NCBI GenBank assembly: GCA_002778465.1
Contig: PFBV01000002.1
Span: 2,312-66,311 of the forward strand
From: Candidatus Magasanikbacteria bacterium CG10_big_fil_rev_8_21_14_0_10_36_32
GTDB taxonomy: Bacteria; Patescibacteriota; Patescibacteriia; Magasanikbacterales; GWA2-37-8
Direction of reading: 5' to 3'
Length of the DNA: 64,000 nucleotides
Part shown: positions 2,370-47,180 of the stretch, piece after piece
How positions within the stretch are numbered: the first letter of the stretch is position 1
How the letters are laid out: every line of letters starts with the position of its first letter
Made by a program: the position numbers and the translations under genes
The notes under the pieces: model-generated
Seen by the model: only the letters and a program-made list of their open reading frames with translations
Databases searched by the model: none
What the model was told of the DNA's origin: nothing

Positions 2370-2759
2370 ATGTTTGGAAAAAATAAGAAAATTAAAAACG
2401 TGTTAATTGTAGAGGATGATGCTTTGTTATCGCAAGTTTTAGGTAAAGCTTTTTCTGCCGCTGGTTTTGATGTAACCGGATTAACAGAGGGAATAAATGT
2501 GGTTTCTACGACAAAAAAAATAAAACCGGCAGCGATTTTGTTGGATTTAGTTTTGCCTGGTTTGGACGGGTTTACTGTTTTAAAAAATTTAAAATCCGAT
2601 AAGGCAACCGCTTCAATTCCAGTGATTGTTATTTCCAATTTGGGAGAGGCGGCTGATATAAAGTCGGTTATGGCGTTGGGAGCTGTTGAATATTTTATCA
2701 AGGCCAATACTCAAATGGAAAAAATAATAAAATTCACGCAAAAAATAATTAAAGATTGA
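2370..2759 (+). CDS. Single-domain (CheY-like) response regulator receiver
   Basis: 129 aa. Acidic pocket VLIVEDD, phospho-acceptor Asp in ILLDLVLPG, conserved Ser (VISNL) and Lys (FIKAN). No output domain. Confidence 0.85.
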   Translation: MFGKNKKIKNVLIVEDDALLSQVLGKAFSAAGFDVTGLTEGINVVSTTKKIKPAAILLDLVLPGLDGFTVLKNLKSDKATASIPVIVISNLGEAADIKSVMALGAVEYFIKANTQMEKIIKFTQKIIKD

Positions 2760-2764
2760 TTTCT

Positions 2765-3157
2765 ATGGCGGGTAAAAAATTAAAAGAAGTTTTGTTGGTG
2801 GTGGAAGATGATGAAATTTTGTTGAGAGCGTTATATTTGATGTTTAACAGTGGGAAATATACCATCGCCACAGCCACTGATGGAGAAACAGCTTTGAAAA
2901 TGGCTGAACGGATAAAACCCGATATGGTTTTATTGGATTTATTGATGCCAAAAATGAATGGCTTTGAATTTCTGAAAGTGTTTAAAGCGCATGATGAATT
3001 AAAAAAAATACCAGTGATTGTTTTGTCTAATTTAGGTGACAGTGACAGTAAGGAAAAAGCAAAAGCATTGGGCGCGATTGATTATTTCGTAAAAGCAAAT
3101 ATTAATTTAACTTCATTGGCAGATAAAATTAAACAAATTTTAAGCCAAAAAACATGA
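2765..3157 (+). CDS. Single-domain response regulator receiver
   Basis: ATG at 2765 (the ORF-track start 2756 is TTG and overlaps the upstream stop). VVEDDE, VLLDLLMPKMNG, VLSNL and FVKAN receiver motifs. No output domain. Confidence 0.85.
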   Translation: MAGKKLKEVLLVVEDDEILLRALYLMFNSGKYTIATATDGETALKMAERIKPDMVLLDLLMPKMNGFEFLKVFKAHDELKKIPVIVLSNLGDSDSKEKAKALGAIDYFVKANINLTSLADKIKQILSQKT

Positions 3158-3975
3158 AAATTAAATGGCTCAATTTAGTTCTATGGTTAACGAATAAAGT
3201 TTATACTTTAAAAAAGAACTTGGTTGAGAGGACGGGACTTATTATTATTGTAACAGTGATAAAACTGTTAATTTTGGAAGTTGTATTGGCAATTATTTCA
3301 TTGCCACTTTATTTGGGTCTTAAAACTAAAACAACTGCCGTTTATTTGGCAGAAAAAAGCGGTTTTGGGCAGGTGGCTTTTGATTATCGTTTGCGTCGGC
3401 TGTTAACTTTAACTGGAGTTGGTGTTATTTTTTTAATTTGGACAGTAAAATTAATTTTGATTATTTCCGTACCCCGCGTTTATGGCCAGTTGCAATTATA
3501 CAAAGTCGTGAATTTTCAATCCGGCACGGGCTTGTCGCAACAGTTGATTAAAACTGAAACAGATATCCAAACCGCCAAAATTTCCAATAAAATTATTGTG
3601 CCAGTGATTGAAAATGTCACAAAAACAGGGATGGACAGTTATGCAGTATCCGGCTCAGGACAATCATTTTCCACGGTGGCAGTTATGCTAACCGGACAAC
3701 AAACAATAATTTATACCATTCAAGCTGATAATAATGGTTATTGGACAATGATTCACAATCAAAAGAATTTTAGGCTGAATGATGGAAATCATTCATTATT
3801 AGCGTTTACTTATGATAAAAAAACTGGGCAGCGCAGCGATATTTCTCCGGAACAGTTCTTTAAAGTTAAGACATCATTGATAGATCGTTTAGTGAAAAAC
3901 ATAGATACCCTGACTAATTGGTCGGTGGTTATTGTAATTTTATTGGGATTATTTTTAACCATCCTAACAATATGA
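3154..3975 (+). CDS. Membrane protein with Ig-like beta domain and C-terminal TM anchor; short paralog of the downstream giant protein
   Basis: ATGA overlap with the upstream stop. The N-terminus (IKWLNLVLWLTNKVYTLKKNL ... EVVLAIISLPLYLGL) aligns by eye with the giant protein N-terminus (ISWLKIFFKLSGRIFELKQKL ... EIVFVFISLPLYFAV). The C-terminal part (ADNNGYWTM...LNDGNHSLLAF + TM helix) resembles the giant protein C-terminus (ADNQGNWHV...LSSGEHTVYAV + TM helix). Confidence 0.6.
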   Translation: MKIKWLNLVLWLTNKVYTLKKNLVERTGLIIIVTVIKLLILEVVLAIISLPLYLGLKTKTTAVYLAEKSGFGQVAFDYRLRRLLTLTGVGVIFLIWTVKLILIISVPRVYGQLQLYKVVNFQSGTGLSQQLIKTETDIQTAKISNKIIVPVIENVTKTGMDSYAVSGSGQSFSTVAVMLTGQQTIIYTIQADNNGYWTMIHNQKNFRLNDGNHSLLAFTYDKKTGQRSDISPEQFFKVKTSLIDRLVKNIDTLTNWSVVIVILLGLFLTILTI

Positions 3976-6900
3976 TGATTAGTTGGTTAAAAATATTTTT
4001 TAAACTTTCCGGGCGGATTTTTGAATTGAAACAAAAATTATCCCAAACTGACAGTTGGATAAAATCTTTGCCTTACGCTTTCCTTTTGATTTTAGACGAA
4101 ATAGTTTTTGTTTTTATTTCTTTGCCGTTGTATTTTGCCGTGCCGCCCAAAAAAGTTCAAGAAAAAGGAATTTTATTTCCTTCAGCCGAACCGGAAACCG
4201 AAAGAATGAAAATGTTTTTTATCAGAAGAAAAATAAGTTTAATTGCTTTTATCACCGCATTGGGAATGTTAGTTTTAAAATTTTTGGTAATCGGCGGTAT
4301 TTCTTTTTATTTGATGGGCGGGCAATTGCTTTTGGCTGCCACTCAAGATTGGCTATTTACCGTCCCTGGCGATTATGCTTATGACAGTTCAAAAATTGAA
4401 TTTGTTGGAGGGATTGCCAGATTGAAAAATTTGGGAACAACGGTTACAGGCAGTACCACTAATGCTAATTTTAATACCAATGCTACTGGCTGGACTTATG
4501 CTGATTGGGATCAAGGCGGTGGTGAGGCGAATGTAGTTGGAACTTATGTGGCATCAGGGGGAAATCCAGGCGGATTTGTTCAAATTAATTTTCCAGTTGG
4601 TAAAAGCGATGAGTTTGGCGGATATTGGCGTCAAGGTTTTGCAATCACGGAAAATAATCCAACCGCAACCCTCAGTTTTGATTGGTCAATAACCGCTTTT
4701 GACAATACTCCCGCCCCAGTCACATTTAAACTTTATGCTTTCATAGATACAGGAACAGGTGTTCCGGTTATTGGTCAAGAAGTTTGGAAATCAGAAGAAA
4801 TTACCGCAACAAGCGCTTGGGTTTCTATGACAAATTTAAATATTTCTTCAAAAGTTACGGCCGCTGGCACTTATTATTTAAAAATTGCGGTATGGTTGGA
4901 AACCCCAAATAACAACACAGGTCCTTTTACGCTTGGTTACGATAATGTCATAGTCAATTGGTCAAAAACTACGATTGTTTATGATTCTAATCGTCCGACA
5001 ATTATACCAAACAATTCTTTAACACCGGTCAATCCGGCGATTTGGAGTTCTTTTACAGAAACAGCTACAAAAAACGGAGGAGAAATTTATTATCAGTTAT
5101 CGGCTGATAATGGTTCTACTTGGAACTATTGGAATGGTTCGTCTTGGATATCCGCCGGCGCGTCTAATTATAATACCGCCATTGTTGTTAATAATAATAT
5201 TGCCGGTTTTTCTACCAGCACCAACAAAATAAAATGGAAAGCTTTTTTGGAAAGCAATGGCAGTCAACAAGTTAGTTTAAGCAAGGTTTCCATCGGCTAT
5301 ACGGAAAATTCCGCTCCCAGTATTTCTGAAGTAGTTCCTGTTCAGCAGACAGATAAAGGCCAAGTTTATATTTCTTATAATTTAACTGATGTTGAAAGCG
5401 ACCCCTCCAGTTTAATTACTTATGAATATTCTTTGACGGGCGCTTTTTCCGGGGAACAGGTGACAATGATAGCGTCCACTACTAATCCAATGCACAATGG
5501 TGTGTCCGGTTTGTCGGCTTCTCCGTCTGGCATCTCGCATATTTTTGTTTGGGACGGAATTATTAATTTGCCCAATGTTTACAACACTAGTACTTATGTT
5601 CGTTTGCGCGCCAATGACGGTATCGCAAGTGGTGTTTATGTCACTTCTTCAGCTATTACGATTGATTATGTAGCACCGGTTATTAGTAATTTATCTGTTA
5701 CGCAAAATTCCGGCAGTGCTAATTTTGATATTTCTTATGATTTATTTGATAACACTTCTGATAATATAAATATTGTTTTAGAAATCTCTGATGATGGCGG
5801 TTTGACTTGGGTTGTGCCGACTGTGTCATCAGTCGGAGATTTGGGTTCCAGTGTTACAGCCGGTATCGGAAAAGTAATTACTTGGAATGCCGGAGTTGAT
5901 TATCCGGCTCATCAAGTTTCCAATATGCAAGTTCGTCTTTTGGTTAAAGATAAATATCAAAATCAAAGCGTTTATTTTAATTCAGTCAATTTTGAATTAG
6001 ATACTTTGGCGCCGGTGGCTGCAATTACAGTTGATTTAATGGCTCAGCCAAATGCCGGCGATACCGCAGTTTTAATTTTTGGTTCTTTTATTGAAACAAA
6101 TCCTAATTATAACAATTTTTTTGTTGGAGTAAACAATGGAGATTATGGTTCGGCCACAGTCGGTGATAGTAATACAATTTCTCCTTCTGCCCAGTTGGTT
6201 GCTACCGGTGTAACCTTAACTGGCGCTGATTATATTGGTAAAGCAAAGATTGCTCACACTGATGATTTTGGTTTTTCAACTGATAATGAAAATTTTTCTC
6301 CCAATAGTTCATATAAATATGTAAAACCTTATACTCCACCGGCGCCGACAGTAGGTAATCCGGCAGAAGGGTCGTTAGATGTCACTATCAACAAATATTC
6401 TTCTGAAGCTGATGGATTAGAATATTTAGTTTTTGAGAATACCCAATCAAAATATATTCAAGGCGATGGTTTATTAAGTGATAGTCCTGTTTGGTTGTCA
6501 TCAGGAACAATAACTGTAATCGGCTTGTCTGATCCTTTGTCGCAATATATTTTTAAAACAAAATCTCGCAACAATAGCGATGCGGCACATACTCTAACCA
6601 GTGAGAGTGAATGGTCGTCCGGCGCGTCTACTGATTATCAATCACCATCCGTAACAATCAATTCCGTTGCACAGACTATTAATGGAACTAAATATGTGAC
6701 AGTTGATTATGTTGGTATTGATTTTCAGAATGCTCAGAATAATCTGGTAGTATATGAATATTCCACCGATGGTTTTGGTTGGATGACAATGACGGAAAAA
6801 GTTGGTGTAGATTCCAACGGTGTAAGCGGTTTAAGTTTTTCTTCCGGCGGAACGGCTTTCAAATTCGCGTGGGATGTTGGAAACGATTTGTTTTTAACCG

Positions 6901-9683
6901 AAGATTCCACTGTTTATGTTCGTCTTCAATCCAACGACTCTATTAACAGTAGTAATCTATCTGTTTCGTCCGCTTTTTTTGTGGATACGGCCGGACCAAT
7001 AATTTCCAATATTAATGTTAGTCAAGCAACTTCTTCCAATAATATTATTATTAATTATGATTTAACAGATACTGCCGGAGCTGATAATTTTATTGAATTA
7101 TTAATCTCTGATGATAGTGGCAGTTCTTATGTTGTAAGCGTGTCTGCGGTTACCGGCGACATTGGCGAAGGTGTCAGTTCCGGTATTGGAAAAGAAATTA
7201 TTTGGAACGCTGGGACGGATTTTAACGGACAAGAGCAGTCTGATATGCGGATAAAAATCCGTGCTAAAGATAGATATCAAAATCAGGGAGATTTTACAGA
7301 ATCATCTGATTTTCTTTTAGACACCAAAGGGCCAATTGTTAGTGATGTAAATGCGGTTCAATCAAGCAGTACCGTGTTAATAAATTATACTTTATCTGAA
7401 AATGTCGGTTTAGTTGTGTTTGAGGTGTCTGATGACAGTGGATTAACTTGGGTGGTATCCACCAGCAGTGTCAATGGTGATATTGGCGCCGATCAATTGT
7501 CCGGTTTAAAAAATTTCCAGTGGAATGCCAAAATTAATTTTAATGATCAAGAACAAAACGATGTGATGGTTCGTATTAGGGCAACTGATTATTTTAATAA
7601 TGTGGGCGATTATGTTTCGTCGGCTATTTTTTCTTTAGATACTAAACCTCCGGTTATAAGCAATATTACCGCTAATCAAACTCTGAATACAAAAGATTTT
7701 TCATTTAGTTATGAATTATCCGATGCTTCAGCCACAGCCACCATAGTATTGGATATTTCTTCCAATAGCGGTTTGGATTGGAATGTGGCGACTAGTACTC
7801 TCTCTGGAGATTCGGGAGATAATATTACCATGGGTGTTAAAAGTTTAATTTGGAATGCTGGTACGGATTTCAATGATCAGGAGAGTAATGTTATGCGTTT
7901 ACGTTTTCGTGCCACTGATGCTTGGGGTAATGAAAGTTTATTTTTTGAATCATCCGATTTTTCAGTGGATACAGCCGCTCCATCTGGTTTGTCGGAATTA
8001 ACCAAATATAGCATTACTGCAACTTCAGTGACATTAAATTGGTCATCCGGAGTAAATGATTCAAATTTTAATCATTATGAACTGTGGTATGGCGCGAATC
8101 AAAATGATGTTTTAAACAGAGCTGGTTCTGCGGACAAGTGGGATTCATTGGATGATGTTGATTTGAATAATATTACTACAATTTCTACAATTATTTCAGG
8201 AACAAGTTTTATTACTACTAAATATATAAAAATTTGGGCGGTTGATAATTATGGCAATGAATCATCGGCGCCGGATATTTCAGTAATTTATATTCCGCCG
8301 ACAGTGACCTATGATTTAATAGTGCAGGCGCCTACCGGTTCAGGCTCAATTAATCCGGCAATTGGCACTCATACATATAGTAAAGGAACCAATGTAGAAA
8401 TTACCGCTACTCCGGATAGTGGTTGGAATTTTGGTGGTTGGATTTTGGATGATTTATCAGGAGGCAATACAAATCCATTAACTTTAATAATGAATGCCGC
8501 GCATACAATTGGCGCTGTATTTAGTGAGGAAACCGTATCTGTTCCTGAAAAACAAGCGCCATCAGGCGGCGCGCCATTAGTTGTGATTGAGGCAACAGAT
8601 ACTACTCCGCCAACCGCGCCGATTTTAACGCCGGTTGCCGGACCACTGTCTTCAACCAGGGTAAAAATTTCCGGTTTAGCCGAACCTGGTTCAAAACTTT
8701 TTTTATACGATAAGGAAAGTCTGGTGGGACAATTAAGTTCTTTGGTTGGTAACAATGGAAGATTTGAACAAACTTTTGTTTTTAATGAAGGTGAACATAT
8801 TTTAACTTCCAAGGCGGTTGACACCAAAGGAAATCTTAGTCAGATTTCAGAATCAATTACATTTGTGATTGATTTAACTCCGCCGGATGCGCCGCAAATT
8901 TTATCTCCGAAAGAAAACAGTGTTTTATTGGCTAATGAATTAGTTTTGGTTGGTTTATCCGAACCGTTAACCGTTATGGAAATTAATTTAAGAGAAAATA
9001 TTTACAATACTGTCGCCAACGAAAGAGGAGTTTGGCAATTTAACATCTTTAATGTTACTGAAATTATACAAGGACGCCAGACAGTGACTGTACGAGCTAA
9101 AGATGCGGCTGGAAATATTAGCCGGCCTGTAACTTGGATAGGTACAGTAACAGTAGTCACGACCACTGGTGCTATTTATCCGATTCAAATTTTACCACCG
9201 GAAATAATTTCTCCGACTCCGTTGGCGCCGGCATCAATAATTCGTGAAGTTAACCAAGCAATTGAGACCACAGCTATAACGACTCCGTCAGTGGTCAGTG
9301 TTGAATTTTCCGGAGCCGATGACATTATTAGTTTTGCCGGCAAAGCTAAACCCGATGAAGAAGTGATAATTTATATTCATAGTAATCAGGCGGTAGTTTA
9401 TCGTACTGTGGCGGATAATCAAGGTAATTGGCATGTTCATCATTCACAAAATGAATTGGAATTATCCTCCGGTGAGCACACGGTATATGCGGTTGGCATT
9501 AACAGTGAAACAAATCTTAAAAGTCCGCCAAGTTTGATAGGGACATTTATTATTGAAAAAAATTGGTGGGTTAATATTTATAGGCATTTTAATTTTACCT
9601 CAACTTTAATTACCATTGCTGTTTTATTGATGGTTATGTCGTGGTTGTATTGGTTACGCCGTCGGGAAACAGTTAAAATTTAA
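3972..9683 (+). CDS. Giant (~1,903 aa) membrane-anchored, repeat-rich surface protein (adhesin-like)
   Basis: Likely start is ATG 3972 (ATGA overlap with the upstream stop); the ORF-track start 3918 lies inside the upstream gene. Architecture: two N-terminal TM segments, then a CBM/galactose-binding-like region (WTYADWDQGGG...NVIVNW). About six ~110-aa modules share ISN(L/I)xVxQ...(I/V)SDD(G/S)G(L/S)(T/S)W...(I/F)xWNAGxD...(V/I)R(L/I)xAxD...DTxxP, at nt ~5311-6005 and ~6650-7975. These are followed by an FN3-like domain (VTLNWSS...YELWYG), an InlB-B-repeat-like domain (GWNFGGWILD), Ig-like domains (DTTPPTAP.., DLTPPDAP..) and a C-terminal TM plus basic tail (WLYWLRRRETVKI). Confidence 0.8.
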   Translation: MMISWLKIFFKLSGRIFELKQKLSQTDSWIKSLPYAFLLILDEIVFVFISLPLYFAVPPKKVQEKGILFPSAEPETERMKMFFIRRKISLIAFITALGMLVLKFLVIGGISFYLMGGQLLLAATQDWLFTVPGDYAYDSSKIEFVGGIARLKNLGTTVTGSTTNANFNTNATGWTYADWDQGGGEANVVGTYVASGGNPGGFVQINFPVGKSDEFGGYWRQGFAITENNPTATLSFDWSITAFDNTPAPVTFKLYAFIDTGTGVPVIGQEVWKSEEITATSAWVSMTNLNISSKVTAAGTYYLKIAVWLETPNNNTGPFTLGYDNVIVNWSKTTIVYDSNRPTIIPNNSLTPVNPAIWSSFTETATKNGGEIYYQLSADNGSTWNYWNGSSWISAGASNYNTAIVVNNNIAGFSTSTNKIKWKAFLESNGSQQVSLSKVSIGYTENSAPSISEVVPVQQTDKGQVYISYNLTDVESDPSSLITYEYSLTGAFSGEQVTMIASTTNPMHNGVSGLSASPSGISHIFVWDGIINLPNVYNTSTYVRLRANDGIASGVYVTSSAITIDYVAPVISNLSVTQNSGSANFDISYDLFDNTSDNINIVLEISDDGGLTWVVPTVSSVGDLGSSVTAGIGKVITWNAGVDYPAHQVSNMQVRLLVKDKYQNQSVYFNSVNFELDTLAPVAAITVDLMAQPNAGDTAVLIFGSFIETNPNYNNFFVGVNNGDYGSATVGDSNTISPSAQLVATGVTLTGADYIGKAKIAHTDDFGFSTDNENFSPNSSYKYVKPYTPPAPTVGNPAEGSLDVTINKYSSEADGLEYLVFENTQSKYIQGDGLLSDSPVWLSSGTITVIGLSDPLSQYIFKTKSRNNSDAAHTLTSESEWSSGASTDYQSPSVTINSVAQTINGTKYVTVDYVGIDFQNAQNNLVVYEYSTDGFGWMTMTEKVGVDSNGVSGLSFSSGGTAFKFAWDVGNDLFLTEDSTVYVRLQSNDSINSSNLSVSSAFFVDTAGPIISNINVSQATSSNNIIINYDLTDTAGADNFIELLISDDSGSSYVVSVSAVTGDIGEGVSSGIGKEIIWNAGTDFNGQEQSDMRIKIRAKDRYQNQGDFTESSDFLLDTKGPIVSDVNAVQSSSTVLINYTLSENVGLVVFEVSDDSGLTWVVSTSSVNGDIGADQLSGLKNFQWNAKINFNDQEQNDVMVRIRATDYFNNVGDYVSSAIFSLDTKPPVISNITANQTLNTKDFSFSYELSDASATATIVLDISSNSGLDWNVATSTLSGDSGDNITMGVKSLIWNAGTDFNDQESNVMRLRFRATDAWGNESLFFESSDFSVDTAAPSGLSELTKYSITATSVTLNWSSGVNDSNFNHYELWYGANQNDVLNRAGSADKWDSLDDVDLNNITTISTIISGTSFITTKYIKIWAVDNYGNESSAPDISVIYIPPTVTYDLIVQAPTGSGSINPAIGTHTYSKGTNVEITATPDSGWNFGGWILDDLSGGNTNPLTLIMNAAHTIGAVFSEETVSVPEKQAPSGGAPLVVIEATDTTPPTAPILTPVAGPLSSTRVKISGLAEPGSKLFLYDKESLVGQLSSLVGNNGRFEQTFVFNEGEHILTSKAVDTKGNLSQISESITFVIDLTPPDAPQILSPKENSVLLANELVLVGLSEPLTVMEINLRENIYNTVANERGVWQFNIFNVTEIIQGRQTVTVRAKDAAGNISRPVTWIGTVTVVTTTGAIYPIQILPPEIISPTPLAPASIIREVNQAIETTAITTPSVVSVEFSGADDIISFAGKAKPDEEVIIYIHSNQAVVYRTVADNQGNWHVHHSQNELELSSGEHTVYAVGINSETNLKSPPSLIGTFIIEKNWWVNIYRHFNFTSTLITIAVLLMVMSWLYWLRRRETVKI

Positions 9684-9687
9684 TGAT

Positions 9688-12411
9688 ATGATGGTTATAG
9701 ATGAAAAACAAAAATTAAAATTAATTAAATTTTATCAATCTATATCTCATTGGTTGGGGATTGTTGTTTTAACGATTGGCGGGGTGGTGTTGGTGGGCTG
9801 GATTTTTGACATTCAAATATTAAAAAGCGTTTTACCTGGTTTGGTTGCAATGAAGGCCAATACCGCCGTTTGTTTTGTTTTATCAGGTTTTACTTTAATT
9901 TTATTACAGGAAAAACGTATTGGAACGGTTCAACGAATAATAGGGGGAATATTTTCATTTTTGGTTTTATTGTTAGGTGTTTTAACTTTGACTGAATATA
10001 TTTTTGGATTTAATTTTTACATTGATCAGTTGTTATTTAAGGAATTACCTGATGCTGTTTTAACTTTTTCACCGGGGCGAATGGCTGCCAATACCGCATT
10101 TAATTTTTTTCTTATTGGTGTTGCTTTGTTGACAGTCAGTTTAAGCAGGAAGTCAAAAATAATATTTGCAAATATTTTAGTTGTAATAGTCGGAATAGTT
10201 TCTTTATTGGCTTTAATCGGCTATATTTTTGGCGTATCGGTATTTTATCAAGGCATAGCATTGTATACGGCCATGGCTTTGCATACCGCGATTGCTTTTT
10301 TATTTATCGCAATCAGTATTTTTTTTATCAGGTTTGACCATGATTCAGTTCCTGTTTTAGGAGCCGGTGGAACCGGAGGCGCGGTTGTTAGACGTTTATT
10401 GCCGGTGATTGTAATAGTGCCAATAGTGTTAGGTTTATTGTTTCGTTTAGGCGAACAAAGAGGCTATTATAATAATGATTTTGAACTTTCTTTTCTCACC
10501 ACCTTTATTATTGTTATTTTGATGATATTTTTTTGGTTTAACGCTAAAAATATTAATAAAAATGAAATTTTGCAAGCCGAGAGTATTTTAAAATTAGAAG
10601 AATCAGAAAAAAAATATCGGGAAATTTTTAATAACATTCAGGATATCTTTTTTGAAGTTAATATGAATGGAATTGTTGTTGATATATCCCCTTCAATTGA
10701 ACAAATTACTAAATACAAAAGAGATGATCTGATTGGCCGAGACATAGGTCAATTATATGCTAAAAAAGAAGAAAGAAATGATATTTTAAAAACACTGGCT
10801 AAAATCGGAAAAGTTTATGATGTGGAAGCTGATTTTATTGATAAAGATGGTGCCAAATTAACCGGTTCAATGGTAGCCAGATTGATTAAAAACGAAAAAG
10901 GTGTTCCTTTGAGAATTGTCGGTACCATTCGCGATGTTACTGCCCGCCGGAGAGCCGAGGATGAATTGAAATTTAAGAATATTATTTTAGATACACAGCA
11001 AAATACTTCTTTAGATGGAATTTTGATAGTTGACGAAGAAGGAAAAATAATTTCTTTTAATCGACGTTTCGTGAAAATGTGGAATATAACGGATCAAGTG
11101 TTGGAATCAAAGTCAGATGAGCTCGCTTTACAATCGGTGCTTGACAAATTGGTAAATCCTGAAGAATTTTTGTCGCGGGTTAAATTTTTATATGAACATA
11201 AAAATGAAAAAAGTCGTGAAGAAATCTCATTAAAGGATGGAAGAATTTTTGACCGTTATTCTTCGCCAATGTTGTCTTTGGAAAAAGAGTATCTTGGCAG
11301 AGTTTGGTATTTTAGTGATGTGACGGAAAATCGCCAAGCCTCCAGTATATTAAAAAAATCAGAAGAAAAATATGCCGCTTTGGTGGAAAATAGCAATGAT
11401 GGCGTTTTAATTTTACAGGATGAGGTGATTAAATTTGCTAACCGAGCTATGTTGAATATGTTTGGTCTTACAGAAGAAAGGGTTATCGGTCGTTCTTTTT
11501 TAGACTTTACCGATGAACCGTCAAAAAAAATTGCTGCTGATAAATATAAAAAACGAATGAAAGGTGAAAAAATTGCTTCGCGGACGGAATTAAATTTAAT
11601 TCATAGCAGTGGACGGACATTTTCCGCGGAAATCAATGCGGCATTGATTTATCATGAAGGCCGGCCGGCCGATATGGCAACCGTGCGCGATATCAGCAAG
11701 GCAAAAGAAATAGACCGTATGAAATCAGAATTTGTGGCTGTTACTTCGCACCAATTAAGGACTCCTTTGACCGGCATAAAATGGTTTACCGAGTTGTTGA
11801 TAAAAGATAAAAAGCATAAATTATCAAAAGAACAAAAAGATTTTATTCAGCAAATTTCCGTCAGCAATGAGCGGTTAATAAGATTAGTTGATGATTTGTT
11901 AGATGTTTCACATATAGAAACCGGTCGTAAATATAATGTTGTTTTAAAGTCTGAAAGTTTACATGATGTGATTCAAGAGGTGGTGGATAGTCAAAATCTT
12001 TCGGCCAAGAAAAAAGATGTTAAAATAATTTGTCCGCGTTGCCGTGAAAAATTGATTATGCCGATTGATCGGGAAAAAATCCGACAGGTATTTTCCAATT
12101 TAGTCAGTAATGCTATTAAGTATTCTCCGGCTAAAAGCGTTATAGAAATAGGTAGAGAAAAAAAACACGAAGAGATTATTATTTTTATTAAAGATCACGG
12201 AGTGGGAATACCCAAACATCAACAGAAACGAGTTTTTGAAAAATTTTTCCGGGCGGACAATGTATCCACTACTGAAACAGGCACAGGGCTTGGTTTGTAT
12301 ATTGCTAAAGCAATTGTAGAAGGACATGGTGGGCGAATTTGGTTTGAATCAATAGAAAAAAAGGGTACGACTTTTTATGTCGCTTTGCCTATAAAAAATA
12401 AATTAATTTAA
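9688..12411 (+). CDS. Sensor histidine kinase: polytopic membrane N-domain, three PAS-like regions, HisKA and HATPase_c
   Basis: ~8 hydrophobic helices in the first ~290 aa. PAS-like segments (YREIFNNIQDIFFEV.., ILDTQQNTSLDGILIVDEEG.., YAALVENSNDGVLILQDE..). H-box SEFVAVTSHQLRTPL, N-box NLVSNAIKYSP, G1 DHGVGIP, G2 GTGLGLYIAK. Confidence 0.9.
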   Translation: MMVIDEKQKLKLIKFYQSISHWLGIVVLTIGGVVLVGWIFDIQILKSVLPGLVAMKANTAVCFVLSGFTLILLQEKRIGTVQRIIGGIFSFLVLLLGVLTLTEYIFGFNFYIDQLLFKELPDAVLTFSPGRMAANTAFNFFLIGVALLTVSLSRKSKIIFANILVVIVGIVSLLALIGYIFGVSVFYQGIALYTAMALHTAIAFLFIAISIFFIRFDHDSVPVLGAGGTGGAVVRRLLPVIVIVPIVLGLLFRLGEQRGYYNNDFELSFLTTFIIVILMIFFWFNAKNINKNEILQAESILKLEESEKKYREIFNNIQDIFFEVNMNGIVVDISPSIEQITKYKRDDLIGRDIGQLYAKKEERNDILKTLAKIGKVYDVEADFIDKDGAKLTGSMVARLIKNEKGVPLRIVGTIRDVTARRRAEDELKFKNIILDTQQNTSLDGILIVDEEGKIISFNRRFVKMWNITDQVLESKSDELALQSVLDKLVNPEEFLSRVKFLYEHKNEKSREEISLKDGRIFDRYSSPMLSLEKEYLGRVWYFSDVTENRQASSILKKSEEKYAALVENSNDGVLILQDEVIKFANRAMLNMFGLTEERVIGRSFLDFTDEPSKKIAADKYKKRMKGEKIASRTELNLIHSSGRTFSAEINAALIYHEGRPADMATVRDISKAKEIDRMKSEFVAVTSHQLRTPLTGIKWFTELLIKDKKHKLSKEQKDFIQQISVSNERLIRLVDDLLDVSHIETGRKYNVVLKSESLHDVIQEVVDSQNLSAKKKDVKIICPRCREKLIMPIDREKIRQVFSNLVSNAIKYSPAKSVIEIGREKKHEEIIIFIKDHGVGIPKHQQKRVFEKFFRADNVSTTETGTGLGLYIAKAIVEGHGGRIWFESIEKKGTTFYVALPIKNKLI

Positions 12412-12416
12412 ATTAT

Positions 12417-12794
12417 ATGCACAAAATTCTTATCGTGGAGGATGATAATATTTTGGCTCAAGCCATTTATACGGCTGTTAGGCGAGCCGGTTTTTCCGCT
12501 GAAGTGGCGGTTGATGGCGAGGATGCTTTAAAAAAAATGAAAAAAATAAAACCGGACGTGGTACTGCTTGATTTAATTTTACCAAAACGTTCCGGTGAGG
12601 ATGTTTTGGGAGCAATGAAACAGGATGAAACATTAAAAGAAGTACCTGTTTTGGTAATTACCGTCAAAGGCGACAAAGAAACTATCAGCCAGTGTGTAAA
12701 AATGGGTATTCGTGGATATTTAATCAAAGCGCATTATACTTTACAAGAAATAATCAATCAAATTAAAAAAGTGATTGCGGAAACAAAAAAATAA
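12417..12794 (+). CDS. Single-domain response regulator receiver
   Basis: 125 aa. ILIVEDDN, VVLLDLILPKRSG, VITVKG and LIKAH motifs. No output domain. Confidence 0.85.
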   Translation: MHKILIVEDDNILAQAIYTAVRRAGFSAEVAVDGEDALKKMKKIKPDVVLLDLILPKRSGEDVLGAMKQDETLKEVPVLVITVKGDKETISQCVKMGIRGYLIKAHYTLQEIINQIKKVIAETKK

Positions 12795-12796: not shown

Positions 12797-14278
12797 ATGA
12801 AGCCGGTGAAATTTTTTGAAAAAGTCGCCGGTTCCAAAAGCAAAACGTTTATTTCGTTTTGCTTTTGTTTTATTATGGGGGTTGGTTTTTTTTCTTTTAT
12901 TGAAATATCAGGAACAAAACTTTATTACTTATTAATTTGCGGTTTTGTAATTTTATTTGGTTTGATATTTTGGTGGAAAAATAAAGTGGCGCGGTTGATT
13001 TTATTGTGTTTATTGTTTGTAGTGTTGGGCAGTATGCGTTTTGTTGGTGAAATGATGTCGTCTCAGGCGGTAACAAATAATGATGGTCGGTTATTTTATG
13101 GAATTGTGGACGAAGAACCCAATTTTAAAATTGATAATGCTGAATATATTGTATCAACGGAATTTAATGAAAAAGTCTTAATCCGCCTTCCTCTTTATCC
13201 GCAATATAATTATGGCGATCGTTTAATGATTGATTGTCTTCCGGCACTTCCACAAAATTATCCTTCCGGCATATTTGATTATCGTCGTTATTTATCCAAT
13301 CAAGGAATTTTTTCGGTTTGTTTTAATCCTCCAGTCACAAAAATCGGAATTGATGAAGGTAATTTATTAAAATCAATTTTATTAAAAACCAAGAATATGG
13401 TCAGCGAACAGATAAACAGATTATTTGTTGAACCAGAAAGCAGTTTGTTGGCAGGTTTATTATATGGAGGACGCAGCGGTTTGCCTAAAGAATTGTCTGA
13501 TAGTTTTCGTCGGACAGGTTTGAGTCATATTGTGGCGGTATCAGGTTATAATATTTCCATTATTTCCGTGATATTTTTAAATATTTTAATTGTTCTTGGT
13601 TTTTCTCGTCCAAAAGCTTTTTGGTTGGCGATAATTGGTTTAGTTTCTTTTGTAATATTTACCGGCGCTTCCGCTTCAGTTGTCCGTGCCGGTATTATGG
13701 GATCATTGGTGTTGATTGCCGAAAAAGTTGGTCGGTTATCGGATGCCGGACGGTTGTTGTTTTTAGCCGGCGCTTTAATATTGCTGGTTAATCCGCGTTT
13801 ATTAGTTTGGGACGCAGGTTTTCAGTTGTCTTTTTTGGCTACTTTGGGTTTAATTTATTTAACGCCACATTTATGGTTTTCCAAAAGAAAAATTCCGGAA
13901 TTATTTTTTAACATAGTCAACCCGACTGTGGCGGCGATTATCGCTACCGCGCCGTTGATTATGTTTCAATTTGGACAGTTATCTTTGTCCGCTTTACCGG
14001 CTAATGTTTTAGTAATTTGGATGATACCATGGCTAATGTTGTTTGGATTTTTATCATTGTCTTTGGGGTGGATTTTTTATCCCTTGGGACAAATAATCGC
14101 GTGGTTGACAGGTTTTGGTTTAAAATATGTTATAATGGTGACAAGTTGGTTTTCTGCCCGAACCTGGGCGGCGGTTGAAATGAATATTTCTTGGTGGATG
14201 ATGTTAATAATGTATTTGTTAATTGTTTTATTTTTTTATGCCAAAAGTAAAAATTTTATCATCGGTCGCCGGATATGA
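12797..14278 (+). CDS. comEC: ComEC/Rec2-family DNA-uptake channel, N-terminal part (OB/DUF4131-like plus Competence domain), lacking the MBL domain
   Basis: 493 aa polytopic membrane protein. Contains the competence-domain signature region LLAGLLYGGRSGLPKELSDSFRRTGLSHIVAVSGYNISI...FTGASASVVRAGIMG. It ends without a beta-lactamase domain. Confidence 0.8.
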   Translation: MKPVKFFEKVAGSKSKTFISFCFCFIMGVGFFSFIEISGTKLYYLLICGFVILFGLIFWWKNKVARLILLCLLFVVLGSMRFVGEMMSSQAVTNNDGRLFYGIVDEEPNFKIDNAEYIVSTEFNEKVLIRLPLYPQYNYGDRLMIDCLPALPQNYPSGIFDYRRYLSNQGIFSVCFNPPVTKIGIDEGNLLKSILLKTKNMVSEQINRLFVEPESSLLAGLLYGGRSGLPKELSDSFRRTGLSHIVAVSGYNISIISVIFLNILIVLGFSRPKAFWLAIIGLVSFVIFTGASASVVRAGIMGSLVLIAEKVGRLSDAGRLLFLAGALILLVNPRLLVWDAGFQLSFLATLGLIYLTPHLWFSKRKIPELFFNIVNPTVAAIIATAPLIMFQFGQLSLSALPANVLVIWMIPWLMLFGFLSLSLGWIFYPLGQIIAWLTGFGLKYVIMVTSWFSARTWAAVEMNISWWMMLIMYLLIVLFFYAKSKNFIIGRRI

Positions 14279-14843
14279 TTTGTCTGCCGCCGATTATGAT
14301 AAAAAAGAAAAATATTTAAACAGTTTTGAAAAAAATAAAATTTGGCTATTGTTGGGATATTTATCTGGAAAAAAAATTTTAGATGCCGGAACAGGAACTG
14401 GACGTTTAGCTGTTGAAATGTCAAAAAATGGCGCGGAAGTAACCGCTCTTGATGTGTCGTCAGAAATGTTAAAACAGTTGTCGCGTAAAAGTAATAAAAT
14501 AAAAACCATGATTGGCGATGCTGAATGTTTGCCTTTTGACAAAGAGATTTTTGATTTGGTGACAGCCGCTTTTTTAATCGTTCATTTTAAGGATCCTTCT
14601 CGTTTTTTTGACGAAGCTTATCGTGTATTGAAAGATGGTGGAAGATTATTGGTGACAAATATTAATCAAAAAGAACCGCCAGAAATAAAAACTAAGCAAG
14701 GAGTTATAAAAATTGAATCGTTTTATCATCGCCCGGAAAAAATCAGGGAGATTTTACAGTCATTGGCTTTTACCATTGAAAAAGAAATTATTGTTAAAGA
14801 AGGGGAGAATTGGATAAATCAGATAATAGTAGCTAAAAAATAA
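14238..14843 (+). CDS. Class I SAM-dependent methyltransferase
   Basis: Motif I ILDAGTGTGRLA, acidic post-I (ALDVS), and LKDGGRLLV. ATG at 14238 (track start 14223 is TTG). The 5' end overlaps the end of the ComEC channel gene. Confidence 0.75.
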   Translation: MPKVKILSSVAGYDLSAADYDKKEKYLNSFEKNKIWLLLGYLSGKKILDAGTGTGRLAVEMSKNGAEVTALDVSSEMLKQLSRKSNKIKTMIGDAECLPFDKEIFDLVTAAFLIVHFKDPSRFFDEAYRVLKDGGRLLVTNINQKEPPEIKTKQGVIKIESFYHRPEKIREILQSLAFTIEKEIIVKEGENWINQIIVAKK

Positions 14844-14846
14844 TTC

Positions 14847-15123
14847 ACCCCGTTAGAGATATTTATGGTTTATATTTATTTAATGCAGAGCAAGAAAGAT
14901 AATCTTTGGTATACAGGTGCTACTAGAGATTTAAAAAAACGTTTTAAAGAGCATAATGATGGGAAAGTAAAAGCAACAAGGGATAGAAGACCTTTTGTGT
15001 TAATATATTATGAAGCTTGTTTGAATGAACACGATGCTTTTACTCGTGAAAAATATTTAAAGTCAGGAATGGGAAAACGTTATCTTAAAAATCGTTTAAA
15101 ACGTTTTTTATCTCTAACGGGGT
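14847..15123 (+). mobile_element. GIY-YIG ORF cassette bracketed by a perfect 15-bp inverted repeat
   Basis: ACCCCGTTAGAGATA at 14847-14861 and its exact reverse complement TATCTCTAACGGGGT at 15109-15123 enclose the 86-aa ORF. The cassette exactly fills the spacer between the methyltransferase stop and the ComEC-MBL start. Confidence 0.45.
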
Positions 15124-15125
15124 AA
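14865..15125 (+). CDS. Small GIY-YIG nuclease-superfamily protein
   Basis: 86 aa. VYIYLMQS...LWYTGATRDLKKRFKEHNDGK...PFVLIYYE fits the GIY-(x10)-YxG..R..E..N layout. Paralog of the ORF at 47285-47527. Confidence 0.8.
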   Translation: MVYIYLMQSKKDNLWYTGATRDLKKRFKEHNDGKVKATRDRRPFVLIYYEACLNEHDAFTREKYLKSGMGKRYLKNRLKRFLSLTG

Positions 15126-15128
15126 ATT

Positions 15129-15986
15129 ATGAAAAAGTTGTTTATAGTTATAGTAGTTGTCCTGCTGTTAAGCGTGGGCTTATTTTATTATATTCATTTT
15201 TCCGCCAATGAAAAAAAATTTGATATTATTTTTTTTGATGTTGGGCAAGGCGATGCAACGCTGGTGCGTTTTGAAGATGGAAGTAAAATGTTGGTAGATT
15301 GCGGACCGGACAGGACTATTTTGAAAAAACTCGGACAATATCTTCCTTTTTATGACCGGACGATTGATTATTTGCTTATTACTCATCCGGACAATGATCA
15401 TTATGGCGGTTGTGTTGACGTATTGCGTCGTTATCAAGTGAAAAATATAATTACAAATAGTGATCGTAAACCGGACGATACTTTTTGGCAAACTTGGCGT
15501 TTTTATGAAGAAAATGAAGATGCAAAAATTTTTATCATTGATGAACCGCAAATTTTTGAAATTGGGAACAATAAAATTGAATTTATTTATCCGGATACAT
15601 CTTTAATTTTATCTTCAGCCGGCGATACCAGCAATAATCAATCGTTGGTTTTTCGTTTAGTTGATAAAAGTGTAAAAGTTTTATTTACCGGAGATATTGA
15701 AGAATCATTGGAAAATGCTTTGATAAAAAAATATTGTTCAATTACAAACTGCCCTTTTTTATCAGCTGATATTTTGAAGGTCGCCCATCATGGCAGTGAC
15801 ACGTCAAGCAGTGAAGAATTTTTGAATGCGTCTAATCCGAAAGCGGCAGTGATTTCCGTCGGTCAGAATCGTTTTGGACATCCGTCTTTGCGAGTTTTGA
15901 AAAAGATGGAACGTTTACCGGTAATTGTTTTGCGCACTGATGAGTATGGCGATATTACATTTGACAAAATTTTAAAAACATGGTAA
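15129..15986 (+). CDS. ComEC-type metallo-beta-lactamase domain protein (C-terminal part of a split ComEC)
   Basis: N-terminal TM helix, then FFDVGQGDATL, ITHPDNDHYGG, FTGDIE and KVAHHGSDTSSS, the typical ComEC MBL-domain motifs. Confidence 0.8.
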   Translation: MKKLFIVIVVVLLLSVGLFYYIHFSANEKKFDIIFFDVGQGDATLVRFEDGSKMLVDCGPDRTILKKLGQYLPFYDRTIDYLLITHPDNDHYGGCVDVLRRYQVKNIITNSDRKPDDTFWQTWRFYEENEDAKIFIIDEPQIFEIGNNKIEFIYPDTSLILSSAGDTSNNQSLVFRLVDKSVKVLFTGDIEESLENALIKKYCSITNCPFLSADILKVAHHGSDTSSSEEFLNASNPKAAVISVGQNRFGHPSLRVLKKMERLPVIVLRTDEYGDITFDKILKTW

Positions 15987-15997
15987 TATATTACTAG

Positions 15998-16029
15998 AAA
16001 CGCTTCCATAATGAAGCGTTTTAATTTTT
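15998..16029 (+). terminator. Rho-independent terminator-like hairpin
   Basis: AAACGCTTC-cataat-GAAGCGTTT followed by a T-rich tract. Confidence 0.55.
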
Positions 16030-27898: not shown

Positions 27899-28030
27899 AT
27901 TGAAAAGTTATTCACATTTTTAGCTATTCCAAGCATTCGTATTGTGTTATACTAATATAGTAATTGAACAGTTTATGATTGAGCCAAAAAAATATTTTTT
28001 CTCAAACAAATTGGCTTGATTTTGATATTT

Positions 28031-42889: not shown

Positions 42890-42891
42890 TT

Positions 42892-43581: not shown

Positions 43582-43591
43582 TTTTTTATTT

Positions 43592-47160: not shown

Positions 47161-47180
47161 CGAGATGATTTGTTCAGTGT

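Follow-up and report, generated by a model that had tools for sequence, protein, structure and literature searches.

Canonical ComEC/Rec2 (TIGR00361), as known from B. subtilis ComEC and from the cryo-EM structure of the N. carbonis protein (PMC13539106), is a single chain that comprises, in this order, an OB fold, a competence channel and a last transmembrane (TM) helix with a metallo-beta-lactamase (MBL) domain. A channel-only form ('DC profile') is represented by H. pylori ComE3 and by SEML1_0777 of Southlakia epibionticum, a species that is experimentally transformable and requires comEC for transformation. The same profile, DUF4131 + Competence, has been reported for CPR in surveys (PMC6299819, PMC6744442) that score the MBL domain as lost or lacking, and the ComEC ancestor reconstructed by Pimentel and Zhang is competence-only. 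In S. pneumoniae, a separate membrane nuclease, EndA, degrades the non-transported strand (as cited in PMC12455585). Small GIY-YIG nucleases have also been connected to DNA uptake. The Ssn proteins are single-domain enzymes of about 94 aa that are flanked by a cognate repeat, and in N. meningitidis SsnA cleaves ssDNA that enters the cell and reduces transformation by a factor of about 5 (Chenal et al. 2025, PMC11893778).

The locus described here lies within a 64-kb stretch of DNA (the window). It has the OB fold, channel, last TM helix and MBL domain in the order of canonical ComEC; however, the modules are distributed over two polypeptides, and two foreign genes are located between the halves. 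The public annotation of a matching Candidatus Magasanikbacteria MAG carries the locus tags COU29_00455, COU29_00460 and COU29_00470. We consider it probable that the locus encodes a two-polypeptide ComEC into which a methyltransferase gene and a GIY-YIG element were inserted later. The four ORFs and the inverted repeat of the initial annotation were confirmed at their coordinates, and the features of the locus are as follows:

12797..14278, + strand: ComEC channel subunit, 493 aa (Pfam and NCBIfam profiles, ComEC chain alignment, hydropathy)
14238..14843, + strand: class I SAM-dependent methyltransferase (MTase), 201 aa (Pfam Methyltransf_11/25, NCBIfam, PDB matches, AF2 model)
14840..14861, no strand: left terminal inverted repeat, core ACCCCGTTAGAGATA, non-coding, immediately 5' of the GIY-YIG ATG
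14865..15125, + strand: GIY-YIG nuclease (UPF0213/Ssn-like), 86 aa, single domain (PF01541, E 1e-16)
15109..15130, no strand: right terminal inverted repeat, overlapping the last GIY-YIG codons (LSLTG*) and reaching the MBL ATG
15129..15986, + strand: ComEC nuclease subunit, 285 aa (TIGR00361, PDB sequence matches, AF2 and fold match, conserved catalytic residues)
15997..16022, + strand: terminator-like hairpin, 10-bp stem followed by a T-run (pattern scan)

Separate genes encode the channel and MBL modules of ComEC

The initial annotation had proposed that the ORF at 12797-14278 stops before any beta-lactamase domain. Pfam analysis bore this out, detecting DUF4131 (PF13567; residues 43-174, E 1.5e-12, 47.9 bits at a cutoff of 31.6) and Competence (PF03772; residues 221-484, E 2e-53, 181.8 bits, profile positions 1-268 of 270) and no MBL domain in this ORF, the same profile as that of channel-only ComEC. 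Hydropathy and profiles place three N-terminal TM helices, the OB fold (DUF4131) and the competence domain in succession; the C-terminus consists of a TM helix (residues 464-482) and a basic cytoplasmic tail, as judged by hydropathy. The protein aligns to residues 142-434 of the ComEC chain 30bt_A and to residues 40-451 of 9vc6_A. With no MBL domain and coverage of positions 76-363 out of 663 in TIGR00361 (ComEC_Rec2), it does not constitute a complete ComEC. Its best 120 homologs all have a length of 439-564 aa and the same two domains.

The ORF at 15129-15986 had been read as a TM helix followed by a ComEC-type MBL domain, and this was confirmed. Both motifs named, HPDNDHYGG and VAHHGS, are present, a single N-terminal TM helix is located at residues 4-22 (hydropathy), and the ORF matches the Lactamase_B profile (E 3.6e-20) as well as TIGR00361 positions 423-663 (E 1.7e-34). 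All six PDB sequence matches were ComEC proteins, the alignment beginning at residue 10, within the TM helix, and covering residues 515-785 of 30bt_A. For the AF2 model (pLDDT 85), the top fold match was the ComEC MBL domain 9ic4 (E 2e-18, TM-score 0.74/0.79). The profile, PDB and fold matches thus identify the protein as a ComEC-type and not a generic MBL hydrolase. It consists of a signal-anchor TM helix, which by alignment is homologous to TM11 of fused ComEC, a linker, and an MBL domain with the same H-x-D-x-D-H active-site variant that occurs in canonical ComEC. Among 70 standalone MBL proteins, the metal ligands D42, D90, H91, D189, H220 and H221 were each conserved in 70/70, H86 in 67/70 and H251 in 68/70, and the best 120 homologs are all 265-342 aa long. 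The protein is predicted to be active as a nuclease.

Taken together, the two ORFs tile a whole ComEC, covering almost all of TIGR00361 and of the solved chain 30bt_A. No single polypeptide carries all modules; the OB fold, the competence domain and an MBL domain with intact metal ligands are all present across the pair, and each half stays below the TIGR00361 equivalog cutoff of 190 bits (76 and 119 bits). Comparison of the termini to the structure in PMC13539106 suggests that the break falls ahead of the last TM helix, in the cytoplasmic loop between TM10 and TM11. In the source genome the two genes are 850 nt apart.

The split predates the inserted genes

The best 120 homologs of each half were all split-sized, at 41-74% identity, and split-sized homologs number in the thousands. 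A comparison of ComEC loci in relatives, as recommended in the initial annotation, comprised 85 loci. The halves were separate but adjacent in 29, separated by the MTase gene in 10 and by another insert in 13, and unlinked in 10, where the 5 kb or more upstream of the MBL gene contained no channel gene; 9 loci were undetermined and 14 were fused. All fused loci are assigned to Chloroflexota, save one MAG labelled Deltaproteobacteria, in a set in which many MAG taxon labels are unreliable. In the Patescibacteria of this set, channel and MBL domain occur as separate genes that usually abut; the median spacing of adjacent halves is 0 nt, and the genes overlap in 13 of the 29 cases. Thus, in contrast to the surveys that score the nuclease domain as lost, it is still encoded here and in most of the Patescibacteria sampled, usually by the next gene. 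Tight coupling of the halves is not universal, given the 10 unlinked loci and the 13 with other genes in between.

The split is therefore ancient and represents the usual state across the Patescibacteria sampled. As it long predates both the MTase gene and the GIY-YIG cassette, neither of these broke ComEC. Of the two original interpretations, a working ComEC of two subunits and a gene disrupted by an insertion, only the first is favoured by these results. That the split might be a recent disruption, a pseudogenisation or a MAG assembly artefact is suggested by the two foreign genes between the halves and by the frameshifts that can occur in MAG assemblies. However, the same break point occurs in dozens of independent genomes, both halves possess start codons of their own and are coherent in topology, the catalytic residues are invariant, and identical proteins are encoded on 4-9 independent contigs. 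A recent break is already contradicted by this evidence, together with the thousands of split-sized homologs, and we consider it hardly credible. The direction of the change, fission or fusion, is something we infer, and the competence-only ancestor reconstructed by Pimentel and Zhang speaks against our reading.

A putative two-subunit machine

According to the topology, the product of the first gene would comprise TM1-3, the OB fold on the extracytoplasmic side and the competence domain that forms the channel, with its end in the cytoplasm after the TM10-equivalent helix. The product of the second gene would start in the cytoplasm, cross the membrane once by its TM11 homolog and carry on the cell exterior an MBL nuclease of ComEC type with an intact catalytic site. 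The two subunits may physically assemble, the nuclease docking next to the OB fold at the mouth of the channel, its place in fused ComEC, and the docked nuclease would degrade the non-transported strand (or scavenge DNA) while the channel imports the other one. The genes of the locus may be co-transcribed. No terminator-like sites were detected by pattern scan in the junctions between the four genes. The terminator-like hairpin is located directly 3' of the MBL stop; as it was identified by pattern scan alone, it is weak evidence for a possible end of the transcription unit.

Alternatively, the halves may no longer cooperate, with the channel working alone and the MBL protein serving, anchored in the membrane, as an independent extracellular nuclease that scavenges DNA or nucleotides. 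Nucleotide synthesis is largely absent from Patescibacteria, for which DNA scavenging is assumed (PMC6744442), and both the unlinked loci and those with unrelated genes between the halves would fit such a role. The ComEC with which S. epibionticum is transformed is channel-only, and the annotation tables of the transformation paper list RNase J as the sole PF00753 protein and no ComEC-type MBL protein, indicating that the MBL subunit can be dispensable. EndA (as cited in PMC12455585) provides an example of a nuclease that is anchored in the membrane and serves the ComEC channel in trans; it is not homologous to the MBL domain, whereas the nuclease in trans would here be the ComEC MBL domain itself. 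Nevertheless, we regard a detached nuclease as unlikely. At most split loci that could be determined, the two genes lie next to each other, frequently with an overlap, the MBL subunit has retained a counterpart, by alignment, of the final TM helix in fused ComEC, and in the solved structure contact to the OB fold positions the MBL domain at the channel mouth (PMC13539106); OB fold and MBL domain are both kept here.

The methyltransferase gene is a later insertion

The MTase gene most likely starts at ATG 14238, which is also the publicly annotated start and results in a 41-nt overlap with the end of the channel gene (stop at 14278), in agreement with the overlap originally noted. From the first possible start, TTG 14223, the overlap would be 56 nt. 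The protein matches PF08241 (86.7 bits) and PF13649 (78.8 bits), has a class I Rossmann-like fold (AF2 model, pLDDT 89.8), and its SAM motif DAGTGTGR (GxGxG) is invariant. The initial annotation had regarded a DNA-methyltransferase-like gene within an uptake locus as suggestive, a view that received no support. The DNA-MTase families N6_Mtase, N6_N4_Mtase, MethyltransfD12 and DNA_methylase were absent from the 16 Pfam and 62 NCBIfam matches, the DNA-MTase motifs (D/N/S)PP(Y/F/W) and PCQ/ENV do not occur in the sequence, the sole PP being part of EPPE, and no DNA MTase was found among the best 50 Foldseek PDB matches, all of which were small-molecule, lipid or natural-product class I MTases or uncharacterised. 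Lacking a profile match, a motif and a structural neighbour of this kind, the protein was rejected as a DNA methyltransferase. It resembles small-molecule UbiE/UbiG/BioC-like class I SAM enzymes, with which it shares the Rossmann fold and the GxGxG motif and to which its best profile, PDB and fold matches belong in type, but it scores below every NCBIfam equivalog cutoff.

The MTase belongs to a very narrow orthogroup, of which 14 representatives were found at E<=1e-30. The MTase-bearing loci are monophyletic, and their sister group consists of Magasanikbacteria with directly abutting halves; the gene was thus inserted once, after the split, where one subclade of Magasanikbacteria branches off. 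Relatives of the MTase occur both inside and outside ComEC loci, those outside at 46-50% identity. In other lineages, SOD, DedA/VTT and other unrelated genes are located at the channel/MBL junction, so that the MTase is one of several lineage-specific junction inserts. We propose that a gene for a cytoplasmic MTase of small-molecule type was inserted once between the halves in this subclade and is probably co-transcribed with the ComEC genes.

We consider it quite unlikely that the MTase is a working part of the uptake module that modifies incoming DNA, ComEC itself, or some lipid or cofactor on which the channel depends. Its position and strand are conserved, and in several genomes its start overlaps the channel stop or lies close to it. 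At 64-74% identity it is more conserved than either ComEC half, and in one further locus (L211) the three-gene order persists at 48% MTase identity despite an unrelated upstream neighbourhood. Owing to this conservation and the position kept in L211, a functional tie to ComEC is possible. On the other hand, its matches at all levels are of small-molecule, lipid and natural-product type or uncharacterised, and it has neither a TM helix nor a signal peptide, in contrast to the OB and MBL domains, whose site of action is outside the membrane. The gene is missing from the junction in the sister clade and in all other Patescibacteria sampled, its relatives at 46-50% identity reside in unrelated contexts, and unrelated genes fill the same junction in other lineages. 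Any role of the MTase in DNA uptake would be hypothetical.

The GIY-YIG gene is part of a mobile element

The GIY-YIG ORF had been described as flanked by inverted repeats, and arms of 22 nt with 95% complementarity were indeed found. The 16-nt repeat core has two matches in the window compared to 0.18 expected, a number reached in 0 of 100 shuffles, and no further copies of the repeat occur in the 64 kb. The ORF is the sole one of a 277-nt element bounded by terminal inverted repeats (TIRs; core 14847-15123), which occupies the entire spacer from the MTase stop to the MBL ATG. The sequence GGGGT in the right repeat, 8 nt upstream of the MBL ATG, may serve as ribosome-binding site. In the encoded protein, PF01541 spans residues 2-68 and Pfam detected no other domain. 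A PDB sequence match was 1zg2, a UPF0213 protein (E 5.5e-8), and the nearest solved relatives are the UPF0213 proteins BH0048 and EF2693. An I-TevI-type GIY-YIG homing endonuclease, in which the nuclease is fused to a DNA-binding domain and the gene lies in an intron or stands alone in a phage, was rejected, as the protein has only 86 aa and scores 23.9 bits with TIGR01453 (cutoff 56). There was likewise no intron or Rfam signal and no PHROG match. Elsewhere in the window, ORF 48004 is preceded by a similar TAACGGGGTAAAT-ATG context.

Among the 85 ComEC loci, the GIY-YIG gene was found in the window only. One other locus (L086) has an internally deleted, 100-nt copy of the element at the same site that is about 96% identical (left piece 87/91, right arm 23/23), compared to 71-77% identity of the flanking genes. 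Eight full-length copies were identified in eight unrelated contexts, that of the window and seven others bounded by the same arms. An inward-facing partner arm was present at 53 of 80 repeat loci, while the control orientations yielded 6 (direct) and 1 (outward), and both full-length and miniature gene-less copies occur in many unrelated metagenome contexts. No target-site duplication was evident. The GIY-YIG gene behaves as a mobile element and is not a resident part of the ComEC locus. The element would have entered the 5-8-nt spacer between MTase stop and MBL start more recently than the MTase insertion, and its right end would now supply the sequence immediately upstream of the MBL ATG.

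A small nuclease gene between inverted hairpin-forming repeats, accompanied by many miniature gene-less derivatives, is reminiscent of REP/RAYT (REPtron), IS200/IS605 and bacterial MITEs; the enzyme, however, is a GIY-YIG nuclease and not a Y1 (HUH) transposase. We know of no GIY-YIG protein as small as 86 aa for which transposition chemistry has been shown, and the mode by which the element moved is something we infer.

With Ssn/NTS (PMC11893778) the element shares a single-domain GIY-YIG protein of about 90 aa, palindromic repeat copies on both sides, a repeat that in metagenomes is also dispersed without the gene, and an insertion-sequence-like architecture; on this architecture, the protein is a candidate member of the cd10448 clade. 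In Ssn/NTS two complete hairpins flank the gene, whereas here each flank is half a palindrome, so that the gene sits in the loop. The repeat also differs from the published SRM motif and lacks dispersed copies in the window; its family is widespread in metagenomes. It could be argued that the protein is a domesticated Ssn-like ssDNA nuclease that works with ComEC and cuts incoming strands carrying its palindromic repeat, its position being functional. The size and flanking repeats of Ssn proteins, the effect of SsnA on transformation and the same-strand location between the ComEC genes at the same site in two diverged genomes are in line with this. We nevertheless rate such domestication as very improbable. 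The element is missing from the other relatives examined and degenerate in L086, the seven other full-length copies have unrelated flanks, and the window provides no other repeat copy to act on. The SRM motif had 0 matches in the window and none within 80 nt of the repeat at any of the 80 repeat loci (0/80), and the nearest solved relatives are UPF0213 proteins. By analogy to Ssn, a link of the GIY-YIG protein to transformation is a speculative possibility.

Possible implications for DNA uptake in Patescibacteria

We advance only tentatively, as a doubtful but conceivable combination, that in many Patescibacteria ComEC works as a genuine machine of two subunits, the channel and a TM11-anchored MBL nuclease, and that the cassette represents an undescribed family of GIY-YIG elements of about 280 nt. 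If so, the cassette would be a nuclease-only, Ssn-like mobile element, in which a single GIY-YIG nuclease in the loop of its own palindromic target spawns miniature gene-less copies. Having landed in a competence operon, it could be switched on along with DNA uptake and target ssDNA as it comes in. If ComEC does operate as two subunits, the published 'losses' of the nuclease domain would really be gene fissions, and the nuclease could be separately regulated, exchanged or lost.

Genes at the locus and position of the break

Positions 12797–15986 of the window, whose source is a Candidatus Magasanikbacteria MAG, carry four co-oriented ORFs, exactly as the initial annotation had described them:

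12797–14278, channel ORF, 493 aa, with DUF4131 (OB fold) and Competence domain and no further domain
14238–14843, class I SAM methyltransferase (MTase), 201 aa, most likely start ATG 14238, 41-nt overlap with the channel stop
14865–15125, GIY-YIG ORF, 86 aa, between the channel and MBL ORFs, flanked by a 22-nt inverted repeat (95%-complementary)
15129–15986, MBL ORF, 285 aa

On the full-length NCBIfam ComEC model TIGR00361 (663 positions), the channel ORF spans positions 76–363 (E 1.8e-21) and the MBL ORF positions 423–663 (E 1.7e-34), each scoring alone under the 190-bit equivalog cutoff. The channel ORF aligned to two ComEC chains, 30bt_A (801 aa; residues 142–434) and 9vc6_A (residues 40–451). 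The MBL ORF aligned to 515–785 of 30bt_A from its residue 10 onward, a position within its N-terminal helix, and its six PDB sequence matches were all ComEC. With 493 + 285 = 778 aa, the two ORFs tile a complete ComEC.

By cryo-EM, ComEC has 11 TM helices with a short cytoplasmic helix between TM10 and TM11; TM4–9 form the channel, TM10 and TM11 are peripheral, and the MBL domain sits on a flexible linker and is positioned through contact with the OB fold (PMC13539106). The channel protein analyzed here ends in a TM helix (464–482) followed by the basic tail KSKNFIIGRRI, and the MBL protein begins with MKK and a TM helix (4–22). According to the positive-inside rule, both termini should be cytoplasmic, which would place the break in the TM10–TM11 loop; the nuclease subunit would thus consist of TM11, the linker and the MBL domain. 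We infer that the two subunits assemble.

Operon structure is predicted from gene spacing and a pattern scan. The MTase gene is probably co-transcribed with the ComEC genes. At 15961–16022, the end of the MBL gene is overlapped by a promoter-like sequence close to consensus (TTGACA-17-TAATAT, TG upstream), and a terminator-like hairpin follows the MBL stop codon just upstream of nusA. Together they suggest that one transcription unit ends and another begins between the MBL gene and nusA. An Rfam scan of the 12–17 kb region at a permissive threshold yielded just two sub-threshold chance matches.

Conservation of the nuclease subunit

The AF2 model of the MBL subunit (pLDDT 85) comprises a helix at residues 2–26 followed by an MBL fold. 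Its best PDB fold match was the ComEC MBL domain 9ic4 (E 2e-18, TM-score 0.74/0.79, rmsd 2.9 Å), which argues against a generic MBL hydrolase, the alternative that would have undone the initial annotation. The next match was Pce, also a reported neighbour of the ComEC MBL domain (PMC12455585). The H-x-D-x-D-H, HHGS and GHPS motifs were invariant in 15 close homologs, and the same H-x-D-x-D-H variant occurs in an active ComEC MBL domain (PMC12455585). Across 70 standalone MBL subunits, D42, D90, H91, D189, H220 and H221 were each conserved in 70/70, H86 in 67/70 and H251 in 68/70. Judged by these residues, the nuclease subunit is intact. Four cysteines (C58, C95, C203 and C208) were invariant in 15 aligned Magasanikbacteria-type MBL subunits, and neither other Patescibacteria nor fused ComECs have them. 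They may pair as extracytoplasmic disulfides peculiar to this clade.

Among Patescibacteria, a requirement for comEC in transformation has been demonstrated by experiment in one species only, S. epibionticum. The comEC gene there is channel-only (482 aa) and neighbours YebC, and the annotation tables of that study list RNase J as their single PF00753 protein; the nuclease subunit can therefore be dispensable.

Age and spread of the split

The best 120 database homologs of either ORF included no fused protein, at identities down to 41–48% (all 265–342 aa for the MBL ORF and 439–564 aa for the channel ORF). We then compared 85 loci, comprising the window, four loci found via close homologs and 80 species-level genome loci with an MBL alignment, all annotated with custom HMMs. 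Channel and MBL were separate, adjacent ORFs in 29 loci; the MTase lay between them in 10 and something else in 13. In ten further loci, 5 kb or more of sequence upstream of the MBL gene held no channel gene, and nine were undeterminable on short contigs. Linkage of channel and MBL is thus not universal in this set. The remaining 14 loci were fused and, with the exception of one MAG labelled Deltaproteobacteria, belonged to Chloroflexota; several MAG taxon labels in the set are clearly unreliable.

Split loci cover Magasanikbacteria, many Parcubacteria lineages, Moranbacteria and Saccharimonadia. Among the 29 adjacent pairs, the channel stop and the MBL start were a median of 0 nt apart; 13 overlapped and 10 were within 30 nt. 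Overlapping or abutting genes are the usual arrangement of co-translated partners. Taken together, the comparison indicates that the split is ancient and lineage-wide. The reading in the initial annotation, which offered a functional two-subunit ComEC or a gene broken by insertion, holds in part: the two-gene ComEC is real, and the MTase is an unrelated, clade-specific insert.

Three loci are at odds with this taxon pattern. Channel and MBL are split but adjacent in a Dehalococcoidia MAG (L056); at an Anaerolineae locus (L062), a second MBL gene lies 1.9 kb from a ComEC ORF; and the fused ComEC of the MAG labelled Deltaproteobacteria (L077) clusters, on a long branch, with MBLs of Patescibacteria.

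The methyltransferase between the halves

The MTase, METHYLTRANSFERASE, matched profiles of the Methyltransf_11/25, UbiE, BioC and UbiG types, all under equivalog cutoffs, with no DNA-MTase family among its Pfam and NCBIfam matches. Its PDB sequence matches were uncharacterised or small-molecule/lipid MTases. The sequence contains the GxGxG SAM motif and lacks a (D/N/S)PP(Y/F/W) or PCQ motif. The top 50 fold neighbours of its model (pLDDT 89.8) include UbiG, MitM, ToxA, PE N-methyltransferase and ChlM and no DNA MTase.

In a neighbour-joining tree of MBL domains, nine MTase-bearing loci were monophyletic and sister to other Magasanikbacteria (L010–L015) in which the halves directly abut, which points to the MTase having been inserted just once. 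Its orthogroup is small: among 1.84 billion representative proteins, only 14 reach E<=1e-30. We compared three distant full-length relatives. One, at locus L211 (48% identical), also lies between channel and MBL genes, in an unrelated upstream neighbourhood; the other two (50% and 46% identical) occur in unrelated contexts. An obligate link to ComEC was rejected on account of such 46–50% identical relatives elsewhere. At the same junction, other lineages carry an Fe/Mn superoxide dismutase, a DedA/VTT membrane protein, a CBS-domain protein, or a phosphatase together with a proline dehydrogenase and a CAP-domain protein.

The role in DNA uptake suggested for the MTase by its position was thus not borne out, given the small-molecule-type profiles, the relatives elsewhere and the other genes at the junction. 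Its high conservation (64–74% identity) and the arrangement at L211 make a functional tie to uptake possible but unlikely, and we conclude that the MTase is a clade-specific passenger.

In three relatives, spacers of 300–500 bp separate the channel gene from the MTase, at L005:5857-6294, L007:6058-6355 and L009:4147-4506; they contained no convincing ORF and no Rfam match at gathering thresholds, and that of L005 looks GC-rich. At the MTase/MBL junction of L002 (5642-5950, minus strand), another lineage-specific insert carries a Cys-rich ORF of 102 aa, zinc-ribbon-like in appearance and with several CxxC pairs; no Pfam match is on record for it.

Mobility of the GIY-YIG element

Across the 85 loci, the GIY-YIG HMM matched in the window only, and the identical protein is on record at the present locus only. 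Relatives have 5–8 nt between MTase stop and MBL start (e.g. TAA-TTTTT-ATG in L006); in the window this spacer is entirely occupied by the GIY-YIG element. The related locus L086 carries, at the identical site, a 100-nt internally deleted copy with both repeat arms and the first ~70 nt of the ORF. Compared with the window, its left piece was 87/91 and its right arm 23/23 identical, versus DNA identities of 73% for the flanking MTase, 71% for MBL and 77% for nusA. The element is absent from a closer relative (L087, MBL 74% identical) within the 101 bp available upstream. This jump in identity and the patchy distribution indicate recent horizontal arrival as opposed to vertical descent.

The repeat core had two matches in the window (0.18 expected). 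A metagenome scan for its 15-nt form gave at least 120, of which 80 loci were read. Eight of these 80 loci contained a homologous GIY-YIG ORF ending in the repeat. Seven of the eight and the window copy are full-length elements (277–288 nt) and sit in unrelated flanks; their ORFs, of 85–88 aa, end in ...KNRLKRFLSLTG, and their terminal repeats are near-invariant despite diverged proteins. An inward-facing partner arm occurred within 400 nt in 53 of the 80 loci (controls: 6 direct, 1 outward), at spacings clustering at 0–100 nt (miniature, gene-less copies) and about 250 nt (full-length). A short query in a large database may match by chance; this origin was rejected in view of the 53 inward pairs and the eight homologous ORFs. 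As single-stranded DNA, the arms form a 21–22-bp stem (z-scores -5.5 in the window and -7.9 in L086). On this evidence, the cassette is a mobile element. Its place in the competence operon may be coincidence, as other family copies lie elsewhere.

A PHROGs search with the GIY-YIG protein gave no match, and literature searches retrieved no other description of such an element and nothing on UPF0213/YhbQ, UPF0213 being the family of the nearest solved proteins. Ssn proteins are ~94-aa single-domain GIY-YIG proteins (cd10448) that cut ssDNA only; their genes are flanked by a cognate hairpin repeat (NTS/SRM) in a layout called identical to an insertion sequence, and N. meningitidis Ssn cleaves incoming DNA and lowers transformation about 5-fold (Chenal et al. 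2025, PMC11893778). Like Ssn, the cassette is a small single-domain gene with a flanking repeat. Unlike in Ssn, each flank is half of one palindrome and not a complete hairpin. No further copy of the terminal repeat was found in the window. The published SRM (Ssn-related motif) regex matched neither in the window nor beside the repeat. On paper the cassette resembles Ssn, as a possible, not an established, member.

The metagenome loci with the repeat core (L089–L168) contain a family of dispersed palindromic repeats, ACCCCGTTAGAGAT...ATCTCTAACGGGGT, whose arms enclose variable sequence (e.g. L092:2300-2500, L094:715-790, L107:3320-3455, L110:7200-7240 and L121:4850-4890), either 0–10 nt (bare hairpin) or 25–100 nt, in the latter case often with a GC-rich stem (GGCCGCC-TAAA-GGCGGCC, for example). 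They have the appearance of MITE/REP-like sequences derived from the GIY-YIG element. Within 47165–47625, a second GIY-YIG paralog, 39% identical to the first and with its real start near 47285, sits immediately upstream of tRNA-Ser(GCT) (47529–47624). It is preceded, at 47222–47275, by a partial duplicate of the tRNA 5' end, with acceptor and D arm, into which a 28-nt hairpin-forming sequence is inserted, and its locus has no ACCCCGTTAGAGATA repeats. It looks as if this paralog inserted next to or into the tRNA gene and the target was regenerated.

Other features of the neighbourhood

In two relatives, leuS directly abuts the ComEC channel gene (L002:1129-3442 and L003:1582-3903). In the window, a ~10-kb block (2370–12794) lies between the two, encoding two receiver-only response regulators, a 273-aa protein without assignment, a 1921-aa repeat-rich surface protein, and a PAS histidine kinase with a third response regulator, whose stop is 3 nt before the ComEC start. 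With this arrangement, two-component control of the uptake genes is conceivable. The 1921-aa ORF (3918–9683), rich in repeated Ig-like/fibronectin-like segments and with a TM helix at its end, and a 2703-aa ORF (28016–36127) probably encode surface or adhesion proteins. The region 42464–45463 encodes a PrgI-family protein and a VirB4/TraG-like ATPase, as would fit the conjugation-type T4SS that has been reported from Patescibacteria.

Implications for ComEC in Patescibacteria

Surveys and reviews have treated ComEC of CPR/Patescibacteria as being without a nuclease domain. Méheust 2019 described the fusion as 'essentially absent in CPR' (PMC6744442), Pimentel and Zhang 2018 discussed domain profiles as 'gains and losses' with split genes unmentioned (PMC6299819), and a 2025 ComEC paper referred to orthologs 'lacking' the MBL domain and left their competence open (PMC12455585). 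How MBL-less orthologs handle the second strand is a question that the field has also left open. Our comparison shows that most sampled Patescibacteria still encode the MBL domain, as a separate TM-anchored protein usually in the next gene. A literature search on ComEC with Patescibacteria and lactamase found nothing. The two-gene ComEC is a variant of a known system that is visible in databases and not articulated in the cited literature, since its standalone proteins are already public under generic names ('MBL fold metallo-hydrolase', 'competence protein ComEC', 'Late competence protein') and the adjacent TM-anchored MBL gene is undescribed there.

The GIY-YIG element may represent a new branch of Ssn-like nucleases associated with repeats, from an uncultivated phylum; nucleases of this kind are of interest as ssDNA tools. 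Neither it nor the split ComEC alters the general understanding of DNA uptake. The split corrects the description of CPR ComEC without overturning current understanding: domain-profile censuses undercount the ComEC nuclease. It also supplies a naturally split ComEC with which to ask whether the MBL domain is needed in cis, possibly aiding expression and structural work, and it allows lineages truly without the nuclease subunit, such as S. epibionticum, to be compared with those retaining it.
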